5,181 nucleotides of DNA, taken from UHGV virus genome UHGV-0386881, one strand, 5' to 3'. The translations under genes were made by a program, and so were the position numbers. Position 1 is the first letter of the stretch. Each line of letters starts with the position of its first letter. Positions 1 to 4,740 of this stretch are shown here, piece by piece. The stretch comes from a virus. The notes below the pieces were generated by a model. It worked only from the letters and a program-made list of their open reading frames with translations, was not told where the DNA came from and ran no database searches.

Positions 1-100
1 CTTACTCTACTCAATGTGGCAGGTCGAACAAGGTTGGACGCCCTCTATCTGGGAGTTTGCTAAGCTCCTCAATTACTCACTAATAGAAGATCTATAAGCT

Positions 101-2008
101 ATGCCAAATCTAACTAAGTATTCACTTGACCACGAGGTTCGGTCAAGTTTCGAAATGGGTCAACTCATCCCATTTTTGTGCCAAGAGGTTGTACCAGGCG
201 ATAAGTATCGCGTACAATCTAGTACGTTGGTACGTCTTCAGCCTATGTTATCTCCGCTGATGCATAGACTTGATTACTTCCAGAGGTACTATTATGTGCC
301 TTATAGGTTGCTTATACCTAATTATGAGCAATTATTGACTGATCCTGATAGCGGTAATACTGTGCCAGGTATGGATAAGTATTTACAATATACTTCTAAT
401 ACCTTTAAGGATTTGTTCATCGAGAAACCTTTGCTGGAGTATTTCGGTCTTGCTACTGCTAATGGTGATAAGAATCCCGCTAGTGTGATTAAGGATCTTA
501 ATGCGACTCCCCTACTTGCTTACTACCTTATATATAATCATTATTATATGAGGTCAGATCTTGATAGTCGGTATGTTGACCAGCTCCGTCCCGAGAATTT
601 TACGAGTGCCGAGATACGTAAATATATCGGTAATGTGATGCATGTTAATGAGGGTCTTGATTACTTCACTAGCGCGAAAACCTCTACTCAGTACGGCAAT
701 ATGGTGCAGTTGGATATGGATGGTAATAATACTATTACTGTTCCCGAGATGCGTCTCGCAGAGCGTTTGCAGTCTTTCCGCGAGCGTCTTTTGCGTGTTG
801 GTGGTAAGTACGTGAATTATATTAAGGAGTTTTTCGGTGTCGAACCGCTTGACGCTAGAGTTCAAATACCTAAATATCTTGGTGGTGACTCTTACGTGCT
901 TAATGTCTCAGATGTAGATCAGACTGCCCCCTCTGAACTCGGAGCCGTTGGTGAGTCTTATGGTAAATCTGTGTCGGTTAATCGTACCGGTCAGATTGAA
1001 TATGATGTGTACGAGCATGGTTTGATCATTGGTCTTCATTTTGTTCGTCCACGCCCATCTAATATTGGTGGTTGTCCTAAGCTATTTACTCGTAGGACTT
1101 ACTTCGATTTCTTTAATCCTCATTTCTCAGCTTTGGGTTATCAAGAGATAGAAGATCGCGAACTTGATGTTACACGTTCTAAAGATAGTGTTTTTGGATA
1201 TGTCCCGAGGTATGACGAGTATCGCTCTGGTAATGATATAGTGTCAGGTGATTTCCGCCGATCGCTTAATTATTGGCACATGTCTAGAGACATTAGTAAG
1301 GAGAAGTTATCAGTTGACTTTGTCGAATGCCGTCCAGATAATCGTATATTTTCTTTTGCTGAACAGTCTTTGTCATTGTATTGGTTTAGTGGATTTGCGA
1401 CTAATATTCGGTATCTTGGTAAGCCATTTCCTGATTCTGTTGGTGTGACTGGATATGTTTGGGCACCTGATGGTTTTAATCCGAAAGGTGATTTATTTCA
1501 CGCTGTTGTTAAATTAGGCTTTGATATTGATTCTGTTCCGTGCTCTTATGATTTGTCTATCGCTTCAGTTACTAAGTTTTCTCATGGTGCTGGCCGTCAT
1601 GTTAAATTTGAGGATGTTGCTTATTCCGATGAACCTGCTGGCATTGGTAATACTTGGGTTTCTATTATGAGTTCCTCTCATGATAAACCGCAAGGTATTC
1701 TTATTGATGATCTTGAACCAGCATTTACGGCGTTCAAGGATGGTAAACCGATCGAAGATGCTCGTTTGTCTGAGATTTCTACGCTTACTCGTAAAGGTGT
1801 TTCTTATCCGTTTATCATTGATATTTCATCAATGAAGATGGTTTCTAATACTATTCAGATTGGTTTTGGCTTGCCTGGTTGGAAGTTTGTTCGGCTTGTT
1901 AGTCGTGTTTTAGATAAGCCCGTAGACAATCATGTATTGTCAGTGACTTATAATAATGTTGATGTTCTTCGGCCTTTGGCTCGTTATGATGGTAACGTTT
2001 TAAGATGA
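101..2008 (+). CDS. Microviridae major capsid protein VP1 (F-like jelly-roll capsid protein), 635 aa
   Basis: This is the longest ORF in the window. The N-terminus 'SLDHEVRSSFEMGQLIPFLCQEVVPGDKY' matches the conserved VP1 N-terminal signature of gokusho/alpa-type microviruses (pattern ...F..G.L.P....EVLPGD.). A size above 600 aa is typical of VP1 with large insertion loops. VP2 and Rep follow in the gene order expected for Microviridae. Third-codon positions are T/A-rich, consistent with the rest of the genome. Confidence 0.9.
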   Translation: MPNLTKYSLDHEVRSSFEMGQLIPFLCQEVVPGDKYRVQSSTLVRLQPMLSPLMHRLDYFQRYYYVPYRLLIPNYEQLLTDPDSGNTVPGMDKYLQYTSNTFKDLFIEKPLLEYFGLATANGDKNPASVIKDLNATPLLAYYLIYNHYYMRSDLDSRYVDQLRPENFTSAEIRKYIGNVMHVNEGLDYFTSAKTSTQYGNMVQLDMDGNNTITVPEMRLAERLQSFRERLLRVGGKYVNYIKEFFGVEPLDARVQIPKYLGGDSYVLNVSDVDQTAPSELGAVGESYGKSVSVNRTGQIEYDVYEHGLIIGLHFVRPRPSNIGGCPKLFTRRTYFDFFNPHFSALGYQEIEDRELDVTRSKDSVFGYVPRYDEYRSGNDIVSGDFRRSLNYWHMSRDISKEKLSVDFVECRPDNRIFSFAEQSLSLYWFSGFATNIRYLGKPFPDSVGVTGYVWAPDGFNPKGDLFHAVVKLGFDIDSVPCSYDLSIASVTKFSHGAGRHVKFEDVAYSDEPAGIGNTWVSIMSSSHDKPQGILIDDLEPAFTAFKDGKPIEDARLSEISTLTRKGVSYPFIIDISSMKMVSNTIQIGFGLPGWKFVRLVSRVLDKPVDNHVLSVTYNNVDVLRPLARYDGNVLR

Positions 2009-2015
2009 TAGAGTT

Positions 2016-3047
2016 ATGCCTCCATTTTTGCCCGCTTTAATTGGTGCTGGTGCGTCTCTTGTTGGTGGTCTTATTAACAATGAGTATGCCCAAGCTAGAA
2101 CCGATGAACAATGGGATAGAATGAATTATATGCAGGATAAAATGAACGCATATAATGCGCCCGTTGCTCAGATGGCTCGACTCCGAGAAGCTGGATTGAA
2201 CCCTAATCTTGTGTATGCTAATGGCGGTGCTGTTATGCAGTCCGCTGTTGGTAATGCTCCACAACCTCCGCATACTGCTCCGATTGATACTCAGGGAGTG
2301 TTACAGATGGTGCAGACGATTGTCGGTGCAATGCTTGAAAAGGATAAGATTCAAGCTCAGAAAGATGTTACTGAGATGCAGACTCAGTCTAGTGAGAAGA
2401 TTGCAGAAGGTCATGATACTACTCAGAAAGAGGTTACAGGCATACAGACTCAGTCTAGTGAGAAGATTGCAGAAGGTCATAACACTACTCAGAAAGAGGT
2501 TACAGGTATGCAGACTCAGTCTAATGAGAAGATTGCTTCTGCTAATCGTAAAGAGAATGCTCGTCAGTTTGATTTGTCTTTTGAACAGCAAAAGCGTGTC
2601 GATGCTATGCGTTTGTCTATTGATCGGAGTCTAGCTAATTCTCAAATAGCTTTGCATTCCTCTCAAATTGAGATTAATAATTTGTCAGCTAATTTGTCTC
2701 GTCAACTTCAGCCTTTTTTGGTTGATAAGGCTAGACTTGATGCTTTATCCTCTCAGTTTTCTTTGAGTAATGAAAAGTTAGAGACTTTTCTTTCTCGTCC
2801 GTATGAGATTTCAGTTACTGACTTAGAGAACGCTTATAAAGATGCAGGTTTATCTGTTCCTAGTGCTTTTGGATTGTCTCAAATGGTAGATTATCATAAT
2901 GAGGCTGTTAGATCTTGGAATCAAGAGGTTAAAACTAACACAAAAAAGCTTTCTGATGATGAGTTTTATTCTGGTTGGATGCATCTTTGGAATGCTATTT
3001 CTGCTCCTACTCAGATGGCTGCTTCTTTGATTTTGAAGAAGAAGTAG
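2016..3047 (+). CDS. Microviridae minor capsid / DNA pilot protein VP2 (H-like), 343 aa
   Basis: The ORF starts 8 nt after the VP1 stop. It has a Gly/Ala-rich hydrophobic N-terminus (PALIGAGASLVGGLI) followed by 'MNAYNAPVAQMARLREAGLNPNLVY' (nt ~2145-2210). This is the highly conserved VP2/pilot-protein motif (...Q..V.D...AGLNP.L). The central and C-terminal parts are Q/S/E/K-rich and predicted helical or coiled-coil, as expected for a tube-forming pilot protein. Confidence 0.85.
   Translation: MPPFLPALIGAGASLVGGLINNEYAQARTDEQWDRMNYMQDKMNAYNAPVAQMARLREAGLNPNLVYANGGAVMQSAVGNAPQPPHTAPIDTQGVLQMVQTIVGAMLEKDKIQAQKDVTEMQTQSSEKIAEGHDTTQKEVTGIQTQSSEKIAEGHNTTQKEVTGMQTQSNEKIASANRKENARQFDLSFEQQKRVDAMRLSIDRSLANSQIALHSSQIEINNLSANLSRQLQPFLVDKARLDALSSQFSLSNEKLETFLSRPYEISVTDLENAYKDAGLSVPSAFGLSQMVDYHNEAVRSWNQEVKTNTKKLSDDEFYSGWMHLWNAISAPTQMAASLILKKK
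2361..2536 (+). repeat. In-frame 66-nt tandem repeat (about 2.7 copies) inside VP2, encoding 22-aa units KDVTEMQTQSSEKIAEGHDTTQ / KEVTGIQTQSSEKIAEGHNTTQ / KEVTGMQTQSNEKIA...
   Basis: Direct reading gives 2361-2426, 2427-2492 and a partial unit 2493-~2536. Units 1 and 2 differ at only ~6 of 66 nt. Identity breaks down after 'gagaagattgc' in unit 3. The repeat keeps the VP2 reading frame. Confidence 0.9.
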
Positions 3048-3079: not shown

Positions 3080-3220
3080 ATGAATATATTTATCAACTAT
3101 GTTCTTTATCCCTTGTTGGTGATATTTTGGTTCCTTGTATTCGTATGGCTTGTTTTGCTTCTTGCAAGGTCTATATGTCGTATTATTAAACAATTTCGCA
3201 ATGGAAAAGAGAAGTTATAA
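3080..3220 (+). CDS. Hypothetical small single-pass membrane protein (46 aa: MNIFINYVLYPLLVIFWFLVFVWLVLLLARSICRIIKQFRNGKEKL). It is a candidate lysis or holin-like protein.
   Basis: This is the internal ATG of the 2975-3220 track ORF and lies 33 nt after the VP2 stop. It has a short N-terminus, a ~23-residue hydrophobic helix, then a basic C-terminal tail. Its stop overlaps the start of the next ORF (3201) by 20 nt, a compact phage-like arrangement. The ORF is short and composition-driven, so coding status is uncertain. Confidence 0.35.
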   Translation: MNIFINYVLYPLLVIFWFLVFVWLVLLLARSICRIIKQFRNGKEKL

Positions 3221-3500
3221 GTATGTGGCTAGAGAGCCACAGAGTGTAGTGTCTGATACTTTGCCAAATCAGACTGTTGACCTTAAGATCCTAGTCAAAC
3301 AATTAATGGATGGCCAGGCTCTTAATGTTGGATTATCATTGTCTGAGGACACTTCGGATACTTTAGATACTCCAGATATTACTAAGTATGATTTCCGTCA
3401 TATGACTGTATCTGATGTAGATAATCTATTGTCTAAGGTTCAGCCTGTGAAAATTGATCCTGCGCCAGCTGAGACCGGTACGGCTCCCGTAGCCGATTGA
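3201..3500 (+). CDS. Hypothetical acidic protein, 99 aa from ATG 3201 (the track ORF starts at 3135 in the same frame). It is possibly a scaffolding/VP3-like or other accessory virion protein.
   Basis: The ORF is on the + strand between VP2 and the intergenic region. The N-terminal 22 codons of the 3135 version (MYSYGLFCFLQGLYVVLLNNFA) look like out-of-frame readthrough of the preceding TM ORF. ATG 3201 (MEKRSYKYVAREPQ...) is therefore preferred. The C-terminal half is acidic and S/T/D-rich (SEDTSDTLDTPDITKYDF...). I recognise no specific family from sequence alone. Confidence 0.5.
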   Translation: MEKRSYKYVAREPQSVVSDTLPNQTVDLKILVKQLMDGQALNVGLSLSEDTSDTLDTPDITKYDFRHMTVSDVDNLLSKVQPVKIDPAPAETGTAPVAD

Positions 3501-3507
3501 TATTAAT

Positions 3508-3609
3508 GGGTGCGGGGGCTGATGGCTTGTCCATTGCCCCCCCTCACCTCTTTTGAGGTGGGGGGCAATGGCTTTGCCGAATAAGTCCTTCGGACCGCCC
3601 CCCCGCCCG
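3508..3609. repeat. ~100-bp GC-rich imperfect palindrome (cruciform/hairpin element) with homopolymer runs G5, C7, G6 and C7, flanked by TTAAT on both sides
   Basis: The left arm is attaatgggtgcgggggctgatggcttgtccattgccccccc. The reverse complement of the right arm is attaacgggcgggggggcggtccgaagg...caaagccattgcccccc. The inner core, ccattgcccccc(c)tcacctc-tttt-gaggtggggggcaatgg (3531-3570), forms a near-perfect ~17-bp stem with a TTTT loop. Outer arms pair with two T/C differences that would be G-U wobbles in RNA. GC content is well above 60%, in a genome that is otherwise ~38% GC. TTAAT sits at 3503-3507 and at 3610-3614. Confidence 0.8.
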
Positions 3610-3629
3610 TTAATAATCACGAGAGAGCA

Positions 3630-3660
3630 GGCGATTACTATTACTTGACATGTAATCGCC
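3630..3660 (+). promoter_or_regulatory. Perfect 9-bp stem (ggcgattac/gtaatcgcc) with a 13-nt loop tattacttgacat. It is a candidate rolling-circle ori stem-loop (TACTATTAC at 3636-3644) or promoter element (TTGACA at 3645-3650).
   Basis: The inverted repeat was read directly: 3630-3638 pairs with 3652-3660 with no mismatches. The stem/loop junction contains TACTATTAC, which differs from the CRESS nonanucleotide TAGTATTAC at one position. The loop contains the sigma70 -35 consensus TTGACA, with a weak -10-like TACAAA at 3670-3675 after a 19-nt spacer. Confidence 0.4.
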
Positions 3661-3691
3661 AAGTGACACTACAAATATATTTGTATCGTGT

Positions 3692-3723
3692 CTTGTCTGT
3701 TTCAATTAGTTGTAGTACATTTG
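3692..3723 (+). promoter_or_regulatory. Possible Bacteroidetes-type promoter for rep: a -33-like cTTG (3692-3695), a 20-nt spacer, then a -7 TAnnTTTG match 'TACATTTG' (3716-3723)
   Basis: The match to the Bacteroides sigmaAB consensus (TTTG ... TAnnTTTG) lies ~80 nt upstream of the VP4 ATG. This is only relevant if the host is a Bacteroidetes member. AT-rich sequence gives such matches easily. Confidence 0.2.
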
Positions 3724-3801
3724 TGCCAAGAGCAGATAACTCTTGATAGTTAAGATTATCAAAGCCTGCTTTTGGACTAAACGTATAACCCATTCTAGTA
3801 A

Positions 3802-4740
3802 ATGCTATGTATTAATCAAATTCAAGTCTTGAACCCTAAGACGGGTAAAATTATTAAAGTACCCTGCGGTACTTGTTACGCCTGTCAATCTAACAAACGA
3901 TCTAGTTGGATGTTTCGCAATACGATAGAACTACAATACGCTGAGAGTGCGTTCTTCTGTACTCTTACATACAATGATACTGCCTTGTTAGGTCTTCCGT
4001 ATCATGCTTCATCTAACTTGCGTATGCCCTTGAAATATCACTATCAACGCTGGCTTAAGCGCTTACGTAAAGCGTTACAGCCTGCTAAAGTGAGGTATTT
4101 TCTTTGTCACGAGTATGGAGACGAGTCTCTTCGTCCTCATTATCATGTTATATTATATCTAGATCGGTCGATGTCTTTGCCAGAGATGCGTGGCTTGATA
4201 TCTGATAGTTGGATCTATGGTAATATTCAATGTGATTATGTTACTCCTGCCAGGATTCATTACCTAACTAAATACGTGACTAAACAATTTCGCAATGTCA
4301 AGGTTTCAGGTCGTTCAGTGGATTATATCTTTAATCACATTTGGGCTAATAGAGATCTTCAACATCGCTATATTGTTGAGTTCTACCTTAAGAAGTTTTC
4401 TTTTGTGGTAGCAAGTCAAGGCTTAGGTTGTCAGCTCCTGCGTGAGCCTGCTTTTATTCGCTGGTTTTGGGATCATCTCGAGCCTGGCGAGTCTTATCCT
4501 ACTTATACTATCGGAGGTCATTCCTATACGCTACCGCGTATATACTTAAAGAAGCTTGTGCCTGATATATGGCGTGAAGCTATTGCCCCCGATATATCGC
4601 CCGAGGCTTATTCAGCCCGTATATCTGAACTCGCGTCTGACGCTAATCTAACTACTAAAACGTATGTGGAAAATGCGCGCTACATACAGGACAGAATGTC
4701 CGCTTCTATCCGCGCTAATAACAAAAAATCCCCTTTGTAA
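3802..4740 (+). CDS. Microviridae replication initiation protein VP4 (HUH rolling-circle endonuclease, phiX gpA-like), 312 aa
   Basis: The N-terminal 'VPCGTCYACQ' matches the Cys-rich motif typical of VP4. RCR motif I is 'FCTLTY' (nt 3955-3972). Motif II (HUH) is 'HYHVILY' (nt 4138-4158). Motif III, with two catalytic tyrosines spaced as in phiX174 gpA (YVAKYVNK), is 'YLTKYVTK' (nt 4261-4284). Confidence 0.9.
   Translation: MLCINQIQVLNPKTGKIIKVPCGTCYACQSNKRSSWMFRNTIELQYAESAFFCTLTYNDTALLGLPYHASSNLRMPLKYHYQRWLKRLRKALQPAKVRYFLCHEYGDESLRPHYHVILYLDRSMSLPEMRGLISDSWIYGNIQCDYVTPARIHYLTKYVTKQFRNVKVSGRSVDYIFNHIWANRDLQHRYIVEFYLKKFSFVVASQGLGCQLLREPAFIRWFWDHLEPGESYPTYTIGGHSYTLPRIYLKKLVPDIWREAIAPDISPEAYSARISELASDANLTTKTYVENARYIQDRMSASIRANNKKSPL

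Follow-up and report, generated by a model that had tools for sequence, protein, structure and literature searches.

A conserved three-way-junction element beside the putative plus-strand origin of a temperate Alpavirinae-like microvirus of Porphyromonas/Bacteroidales

Genome context and fold of the element

The virus genome UHGV-0386881, a stretch of 5181 nucleotides (nt) referred to here in its full length as the window, is a circular and essentially complete genome of a microvirus, with every gene on the plus strand. The phage is temperate and Alpavirinae-like, its hosts belong to Porphyromonas/Bacteroidales, and the closest GenBank records are Microviridae from the human vagina and gut with 81–85% identity. 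The subject of this study is a GC-rich structured element situated in the 301-nt non-coding stretch between a 121-amino-acid open reading frame (ORF) and the gene for the rolling-circle replication protein Rep. The genes of the window are as follows:

101-2008, plus strand: major capsid protein (Phage_F)
2016-3047, plus strand: DNA pilot protein
3135-3500, plus strand: 121-amino-acid ORF without a family match
3802-4740, plus strand: rolling-circle Rep, with its ATG at 3802
spanning the window ends, plus strand: lysin-like ORF

The core of the element (3508-3609) has a GC content of 66.7%, compared with 40.5% for the genome. An initial annotation of this DNA had given about 60–70% for the core, in agreement with the measured value, and about 38% for the background, which is too low. 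It had also described alternating runs of G and C, three of which lie where it placed them (G5 at 3514-3518, C7 at 3537-3543 and G6 at 3560-3565); the last, a second C7, is at 3598-3604, one base from the claimed position. The TTAAT motifs that it reported on either side are present at 3503-3507 and 3610-3614. Instead of the single long hairpin that had been proposed, the predicted fold is a three-way junction, in which the 17-bp inner stem of that hairpin is retained as the 12 + 5 bp upper stem of the arm termed P2. The parts of the element are:

3498-3619, plus strand: whole structured element, a three-way junction (from folds, covariance model R1 and covariation)
3498-3519, plus strand: 5′ strand of P1, TGATATTAATGGGTG-C-GGGGGC, which pairs with 3597-3619 (from the fold)
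3524-3578, plus strand: P2, the long arm (from the fold and covariation)
3585-3595, plus strand: P3, a small hairpin, GTCC-TTC-GGAC (from the fold and covariation)
3597-3619, plus strand: 3′ strand of P1, GCCCCC-C-CGCCCGTTAAT-A-ATCA (from the fold and covariation)

The outermost pairs of the element begin at the TGA stop codon of ORF 3135-3500, and P1 contains this codon together with two G·T pairs and one C·C 1×1 mismatch, a conserved pyrimidine-pyrimidine opposition of C3513 and C3603. From its base upwards, P2 consists of a lower GGC/GCC stem, a 4×4 internal loop, a 12-bp stem (CCATTGCCCCCC/GGGGGGCAATGG), a CTC bulge and an apical hairpin, ACCTC-TTTT-GAGGT. In other sequence types of the element, described below, P3 reads GCC-TCA-GGC or GCC-TAG-GGC.

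The stability of this structure was exceptional. Folded as single-stranded DNA (ssDNA), the segment 3500-3620 reached −36 kcal/mol (z = −7.0), a value equalled by none of 200 shuffled sequences, a comparison that the initial annotation had proposed; folded as RNA it reached −72.2 kcal/mol (z = −8.1), again with no shuffle as good. In a sliding scan of the whole window with segments of 120 nt the element gave the best value, −35.5 against a mean of −10.3 (standard deviation 4.5) and hence about 5.6 standard deviations below it, while the best 120-nt segment elsewhere in the genome gave −22.3. Runs of three or more G, as considered for a G-quadruplex or i-motif, number only three per strand in the element, and the hairpin alternative to such structures is strongly backed by covariation. 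A permissive Rfam scan of the whole window returned chance-level matches only, the best one overlapping the element being Pab91 (18.2 bits compared with a gathering score of 71, E = 9.9), and a search for tRNA and tmRNA genes with ARAGORN found nothing.

A coding role for the element was considered and rejected. A plus-frame ATG at 3506, inside the element region, opens a frame of only 16 codons in the window, ORF 3426-3662 on the minus strand matches no Pfam family, and insertions and deletions within the C and G runs disrupt all frames between relatives. In the GenBank record OP549878.1 a 64-amino-acid hypothetical protein (UYL88490.1) is annotated across the element, at 3369-3563 (421-615 of the matching segment, L001); this coding sequence is probably spurious, because its frame depends on a C run that is one base shorter, and relatives do not preserve this frame.

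Covariation and strand bias among relatives

The element was compared across a clade of 14 members, comprising the window and 13 further copies. These came from five GenBank genomes, three IMG/VR contigs, a Porphyromonas metagenome-assembled genome (MAG) contig (L117), a 59-kb ENA contig (L136), the metagenome contigs L143-L145, and L147; scans of IMG/VR and of JGI metagenomes contributed few sequences, namely three viral contigs and five metagenome contigs. Covariance model R1 identified exactly one copy of the element, in the same place, in all 14 members. The copies fall into five sequence types with pairwise identities of 69–83%, all of which fold to the same junction. In the lower part of P2 the sequences of the types are unrelated and yet paired (GGC...CCATTG in the window, GATGCCT in type C, CACGGCT in type D), and the apical 27 nt of P2 are nearly invariant across the clade, with the consensus CCCCC-YYY-ACCTC-TTTW-GAGGT-GGGGG.

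The raw MAFFT alignment, from which RNAalifold reported 12 compensatory pairs, was structurally wrong in the middle of P2 for types C and D, and the copies were therefore realigned with the covariance model. Since such realignment biases counts toward the structure, we report them alongside slid controls in which the partner was shifted by 1–3 columns. In the model-guided alignment of the 14 copies, standard pairs occupied 93.6% of cells, and both-sided, compensatory changes were found in 14 of 44 pairs (40 cells), whereas the slid controls gave 2–5 such pairs and 40–58% pairing; covariation of homologous regions, which the initial annotation had named as a way to judge the palindrome, thus speaks for it. 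None of 500 column shuffles reached the observed covariation values. By helix, P1 (helix 1) showed both-sided changes in eight of its 21 pairs with 95.6% of cells paired, and P3 (helix 5) in two of its four pairs.

The fold also favours one strand. The plus strand was more stable than the minus strand in all nine variants with RNA parameters, and in eight of the nine, with one tie, when DNA parameters were used; the variants contain 27 G·U/G·T pairs on the plus strand and four on the minus strand. We therefore conclude that selection acts on the plus strand, which in the Microviridae is packaged as DNA and has the same sense as the mRNA. The element is a conserved fold with covarying helices, a plus-strand bias and a constant position in the genome.

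A putative plus-strand origin adjacent to the element

On its 3′ side the element is followed by several further features of the same non-coding stretch:

3630-3660, plus strand: putative plus-strand origin hairpin, GGCGATTAC-N13 loop-GTAATCGCC (from conservation and the match to phiX174)
3665-3692, plus strand: hairpin GACAC...GTGTC, directly 3′ of the origin hairpin
3716-3723, plus strand: TAcaTTTG box, putative promoter for Rep and downstream genes (seen in the sequence)
3774-3797, plus strand: dif-like attachment (att) site, GGACTAAACGTATAACCCATTCTA

The origin hairpin begins 11 nt 3′ of the element, a gap that measures 9–14 nt across all five types. Its loop reads ACTTGACAT in the window and ACTTGATAT in many relatives, and the ACTTG|A within it (3647|3648) matches the viral-strand origin of phiX174, AACTTG|ATATTAATAAC (annotated at 4306, NC_001422). 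The hairpin is kept, with covariation of its stem, in L137, L139 and L140, in which Rep is 55–60% identical; the stem is GCGGTTAC/GTAACCGC in L137 and L139, and the series runs from GGCGATTAC to GCGGTTAC to CTGGCAAATAT. The motif ACTTG|A(N)AT is also found in L147, and in L150 and L151, whose Rep is just 34–36% identical. Because the motif persists down to 34% Rep identity, the hairpin is likely to be the plus-strand origin of this branch of the Microviridae, with a putative nick at G3647|A3648 in the window. The adjacent GACAC...GTGTC hairpin may be a Rep-binding region. TAnnTTTG is the −7 promoter consensus of Bacteroidetes, and a box of this form is present in L137, L139, L140 and L147 as well.

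We compared the region 5′ of the origin motif in six lineages, comprising the clade of the window and L137, L139, L140, L150 and L151. When each genome was scored in 120-nt segments folded as ssDNA, the most stable segment fell no more than 300 nt 5′ of the origin motif in all six; in L139 and L140 this top-scoring segment also takes in the origin hairpin itself. Imperfect hairpins of 180–220 nt occupy the slot of the element in L137 (11770-11970), L150 (3861-4160) and L151 (1130-1310), with z values from −6.6 to −10.5. These folds of distant lineages are locally GC-enriched and have no sequence relation to the element of the window. A canonical terminator, consisting of a GC hairpin and a T run, stands right after the last gene in L137, L139 and L140, and apparently in L151 too, and in the first three the order is terminator, further large hairpins and origin hairpin. 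As lineages with a separate terminator still keep the large fold, termination alone does not explain it. The presence of such folds in all lineages examined makes a large stable plus-strand structure beside the origin a shared feature of the branch; the element of the window is the clade-specific version of this structure.

A possible role in complementary-strand synthesis

One of three readings offered in the initial annotation was a functional ssDNA structure, and this is supported in kind by the covariation, the plus-strand bias, the origin-side position and the analogous folds elsewhere. The specific function, be it complementary-strand origin, terminator or packaging, is one that we infer. 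We tentatively favour the interpretation that the element is a complementary-strand origin on the plus strand, with or without a role in termination, and hold it to be a leading possibility that stops a little short of probable. As one would look for in such an origin, the element is the best fold of the genome, lies in the non-coding part of the plus strand and has a strand-specific structure.

The priming and termination roles that we infer could operate as follows. In packaged or injected ssDNA the GC-rich three-way junction would stay double-stranded while the rest of the genome would be coated with single-strand-binding protein (SSB). The junction would then offer an entry site to host priming enzymes, whether primase, a PriA primosome or RNA polymerase, which would start complementary-strand synthesis and so turn the ssDNA into the replicative form. 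A sequence-specific contact would be made by the nearly invariant apical hairpin, with the covarying lower stems as a scaffold. In RNA, the same fold probably ends or stabilises the plus-strand transcript, since it starts with the stop codon that closes the last gene of the single plus-strand transcription unit, and the putative promoter follows further 3′. A more far-reaching version, in which the element would be the first recognisable complementary-strand origin of a Bacteroidales (Alpavirinae-like) microvirus, with its apex read by a host priming enzyme and its RNA fold acting as the operon terminator, is conceivable and distinctly more doubtful.

The layout of the region (last structural gene, stable folds, plus-origin hairpin, promoter, Rep) has parallels in several known systems. 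The intergenic region of the Ff phages M13, f1 and fd, with its hairpins A-E, runs from the last morphogenesis gene through the hairpins to the plus-origin nick hairpin and the Rep gene (gene II); hairpins B and C form a minus-strand origin primed by RNA polymerase, and hairpin A combines the functions of packaging signal and transcription terminator, a single structure with a role in DNA and in RNA. The order of last gene, folds, plus-origin hairpin and Rep gene is the same here. Unlike the Ff region, which is a row of hairpins, the element is one three-way junction; there is no sequence similarity, and the family, packaging mode and host (here Bacteroidales) differ. Rolling-circle plasmids carry single-strand origins (ssoA, ssoU, ssoT and ssoW), imperfect palindromes of 100–200 nt that are strand- and orientation-specific, lie beside the double-strand origin and show little sequence conservation between types apart from conserved apical motifs. 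The element resembles them as a stable strand-specific structure next to the plus or double-strand origin, and differs in belonging to a phage, not a plasmid, and in the absence of CS-6 and RSB.

Within the Microviridae, the phiX174 primosome assembly site (PAS, recognised by n′/PriA) and the G4-type primase origin are SSB-resistant hairpins in the F-G intergenic region of Bullavirinae that start the complementary strand. They share with the element their hairpin structure and their place in non-coding sequence on the plus strand that a microvirus packages (cited in PMC9865509). Their sequences are unrelated to that of the element, and they lie far from the plus origin, which is inside gene A, whereas the fold of the window is 11 nt from the putative origin hairpin. 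In reekeekee- and roodoodoo-microviruses, long hairpins before Rep show compensatory substitutions in both arms and have been proposed as minus-strand origins, as yet unproven (PMC9865509); those hairpins are simple, measure 13–64 nt, are unrelated in sequence and belong to other clades with Alphaproteobacteria-like hosts. We suggest that the element may function in the manner of a single-strand origin or of an intergenic hairpin of the Ff type while standing outside any of those sequence families. In the scans and in the comparison of motifs, flanks and junction position, it fitted neither an Rfam family nor a miniature inverted-repeat transposable element (MITE), a CTX-type attP or the ssoA, G4 and Ff sequence families.

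Several observations weigh against a complementary-strand origin. No known single-strand-origin motif (ssoA CS-6/RSB, G4 CTG or Ff-type) is conserved in the element: the CS-6 sequence TAGCGT occurs in type E only, where it appears to be a chance match, and a G4-like CTG start is found at no fixed place. With these family-specific motifs absent, we do not file the element under any named origin type. A promoter scan listed no promoter-like site within 3498-3619, and sigma-70 motifs are not conserved there. The covariation rests on about five lineages and on an alignment fitted to the structure, and the plus-strand bias cannot tell ssDNA from mRNA, which are of the same sense. Finally, the clade of the window has no evident separate terminator, and P1 is followed by a U-rich tail in types C and D.

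These last two points make a purely RNA-level role a serious alternative, which we nevertheless regard as on the unlikely side. The element would then be only a terminator and/or a 3′-end stabiliser of a polycistronic mRNA for Rep, the lysin-like ORF, capsid, pilot protein and the 121-amino-acid ORF, and would keep transcription from continuing around the circular genome through the origin and promoter or, in the integrated state, from entering host pyrD. Like an intrinsic terminator, the element places a GC-rich hairpin immediately behind the final gene of an operon; its stem starts at the TGA of ORF 3135-3500, upstream of the box at 3716-3723, in a genome with all genes on the plus strand. 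Canonical terminators occupy exactly this position in L137, L139 and L140, the apical 19-mer serves elsewhere as a terminator hairpin flanked by A and T runs (in Moraxellaceae, Saccharibacteria and Rhodococcus), the RNA fold of −72 kcal/mol tolerates G·U pairs, and the tails after P1 in types C and D (TTGTTTTAAT and TTGTTTTTATTA, respectively) are the U-rich ones mentioned above. The window type, however, lacks a U tract, its tail TTAATAAT having four T in eight positions, and a terminator scan made no call for it or for the tails of type B (TTAATAGC) and type E (TTAATACT). A branched junction of 120 nt with a conserved mismatch and an invariant apex also goes far beyond what termination needs, and lineages with a normal terminator retain a separate large fold by the origin.

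An accessory ssDNA or replicative-form structure for rolling-circle replication or encapsidation, such as a fork pause, a positioning device for Rep or a packaging mark like Ff hairpin A, appears improbable. The element is the last sequence to be synthesised or displaced before the putative nick at 3647|3648, and its place immediately 5′ of the origin hairpin, 9–14 nt away in the five types, would suit such a role; the analogous folds elsewhere lie at variable distances of 50–290 nt from the origin, which does not. Packaging of the phiX174 type is coupled to Rep at the origin, and we know of no separate packaging signal in phiX174-type microviruses.

We give slightly less weight still to a regulatory function as a structured non-coding RNA in its own right, for instance in lysogeny or host interaction. 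Functional RNAs typically show just such a conserved fold of several covarying helices with an invariant apical loop, but Rfam returned nothing better than the match at E = 9.9, the element follows directly after a stop codon and so has no promoter of its own, and it is confined to one small clade, with unrelated folds in the slot of other lineages.

If the element is indeed a complementary-strand origin, a hyper-stable fold just 5′ of an ACTTG|ATAT origin hairpin would mark the replication module of a whole branch of the Microviridae. This would bear on how the second strand is started in microviruses outside the phiX174/G4 group, which dominate the ssDNA viromes of the human gut, mouth and vagina. 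Together with the origin hairpin, the promoter box and the dif-like att site, the element provides a compact map of the control region of about 300 nt in a temperate Porphyromonas microvirus, which could guide the design of minimal replicons and synthetic genomes, annotation, and searches for origins in metagenomic microviruses. As a terminator only, it would be an ordinary feature. To a specialist, a stable hairpin close to the origin of an ssDNA phage will come as no surprise, and covarying hairpins beside Rep with a proposed origin role are already known from other microvirus clades (PMC9865509); the literature that we searched held no account of this element or of an Alpavirinae-like origin region, and a well-supported structure makes the second-strand origin of Bacteroidales microviruses testable.

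Flanking TTAAT sequences and the source of the GC-rich element

The initial annotation had offered two further readings of the TTAAT flanks, as an extension of the palindrome or as the target-site duplication of a MITE-like insertion. The first is supported: the flanks pair with each other and change together in relatives, as in the replacement of TTAATGGGTG.../...CGCCCGTTAA by TTTAAACAAGTG.../...CACTTGTTTTTA. In types C and D they read TTTAAAC.../...GTTTT(T)A, sequences that are complementary and not direct repeats. Being the outer, covarying part of P1, the TTAAT flanks are not a target-site duplication, and with 18 occurrences of TTAAT in the window the two at the element are not remarkable in themselves.

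Insertion of a mobile palindromic element, of the MITE type or resembling a repetitive extragenic palindromic (REP) sequence, at TTAAT and possibly from a GC-richer genome is accordingly very improbable. It would account for TTAAT on both sides and for the jump in GC content from 40% to 67%, but the flanks pair and covary as a stem, each genome has a single copy, and there is no empty site among the 14 clade members, all of which carry the element. Covariance model R1 found no further copy in about 40 kb of host flank (L117, L136, L141, L144 and L145) or at any other position in the phage genomes, and no element in more distant relatives, whose slot holds unrelated structured DNA and is not an empty site.

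In a scan of the apical 19-mer against 185,579 species genomes, the sole full-length copy among the matches listed was the prophage itself. The other listed matches were mostly a repeat family of Planctomycetota/Phycisphaerae and ordinary terminators, which share the apical hairpin only; matches outside the clade gave BLAST alignments of at most 26 nt and R1 scores of at most 28 bits, compared with 52–150 bits for true members. We treated these apical-hairpin matches as convergence. The repeat family (GGGTGGCCCACCTCTTTAGAGGTGGGGGACACGAAT...ATTCGTGTCCCCCACGGCTAAAGCCATGGGCCA; L016-L135, from Phycisphaerae/Planctomycetota MAGs) is present in dozens of copies per MAG and has only the 19-nt apical hairpin in common with the element.

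Acquisition from a GC-richer source, as the initial annotation had suggested, found no support: the host flanks have 49–53% GC, below the 66.7% of the element, and host origin thus does not explain its composition. Given this difference, and the non-homologous GC-enriched folds that fill the same slot elsewhere, the GC richness is better explained by selection for stable pairing.

Lysogeny, the attachment site and CRISPR spacers

Two of the copies, L117 and L136, are integrated. In both, the match to the window ends at 3796/3797, 5 nt before the Rep ATG (3802), and is followed by host pyrD/pyrK. L117, with its junction at about 7205, is binned as Porphyromonas; the prophage in the 59-kb contig L136 is bounded by 24-nt imperfect direct repeats, GAACTAAACATAAATCTCATTCTA and GGACTAAACTTATATCTCATTCTA (6860-6890 and 12050-12075). 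The phage encodes no integrase. Dif-like att sites have been reported for Bacteroidales microvirus proviruses without an integrase (PMC3091885), and the repeats flanking the L136 prophage and the att site of the window resemble these. As the TAcaTTTG box (3716-3723) lies upstream of the att site, integration would separate Rep from this putative promoter, and the prophage could in that way stay silent with no need of a repressor.

Within the prophage the element is intact, about 180 nt from the junction, and is therefore not the crossover site. A folded ssDNA attachment site like that of CTX phage, used by host XerC/D for single-strand integration, would suit a temperate phage with no integrase, a dif-like att site (PMC3091885) and a large ssDNA fold, but it can be dismissed as the least plausible reading, given that the junction at 3796/3797 is some 180 nt 3′ of an element left intact in the prophages and that the stems contain neither dif-like arms nor an inverted att copy to pair with the att site.

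A second integration site, with a different flank, was seen in L009 and L149. In L009 the host-side flank (1-366, minus strand) encodes a fragment that resembles, by eye only, a phage head-morphogenesis protein, and this copy of the microvirus may be integrated inside or beside another prophage.

A CRISPR array with the repeat GTCGCACCCCACACGGGGTGCGTGAATTGAAAC and 21 spacers was present in L141 (OLQN01000224.1, minus strand, 5610-7011). None of the spacers of this array targets the GC-rich element; at least seven of the 21 match this microvirus family, and spacers 16 and 18 overlie the origin hairpin in opposite orientations. A CRISPR repeat of the L141 type also follows straight after the phage sequence in the last ~35 nt at the 3′ end of L149, which is probably an assembly chimera of phage and array joined via a matching spacer.

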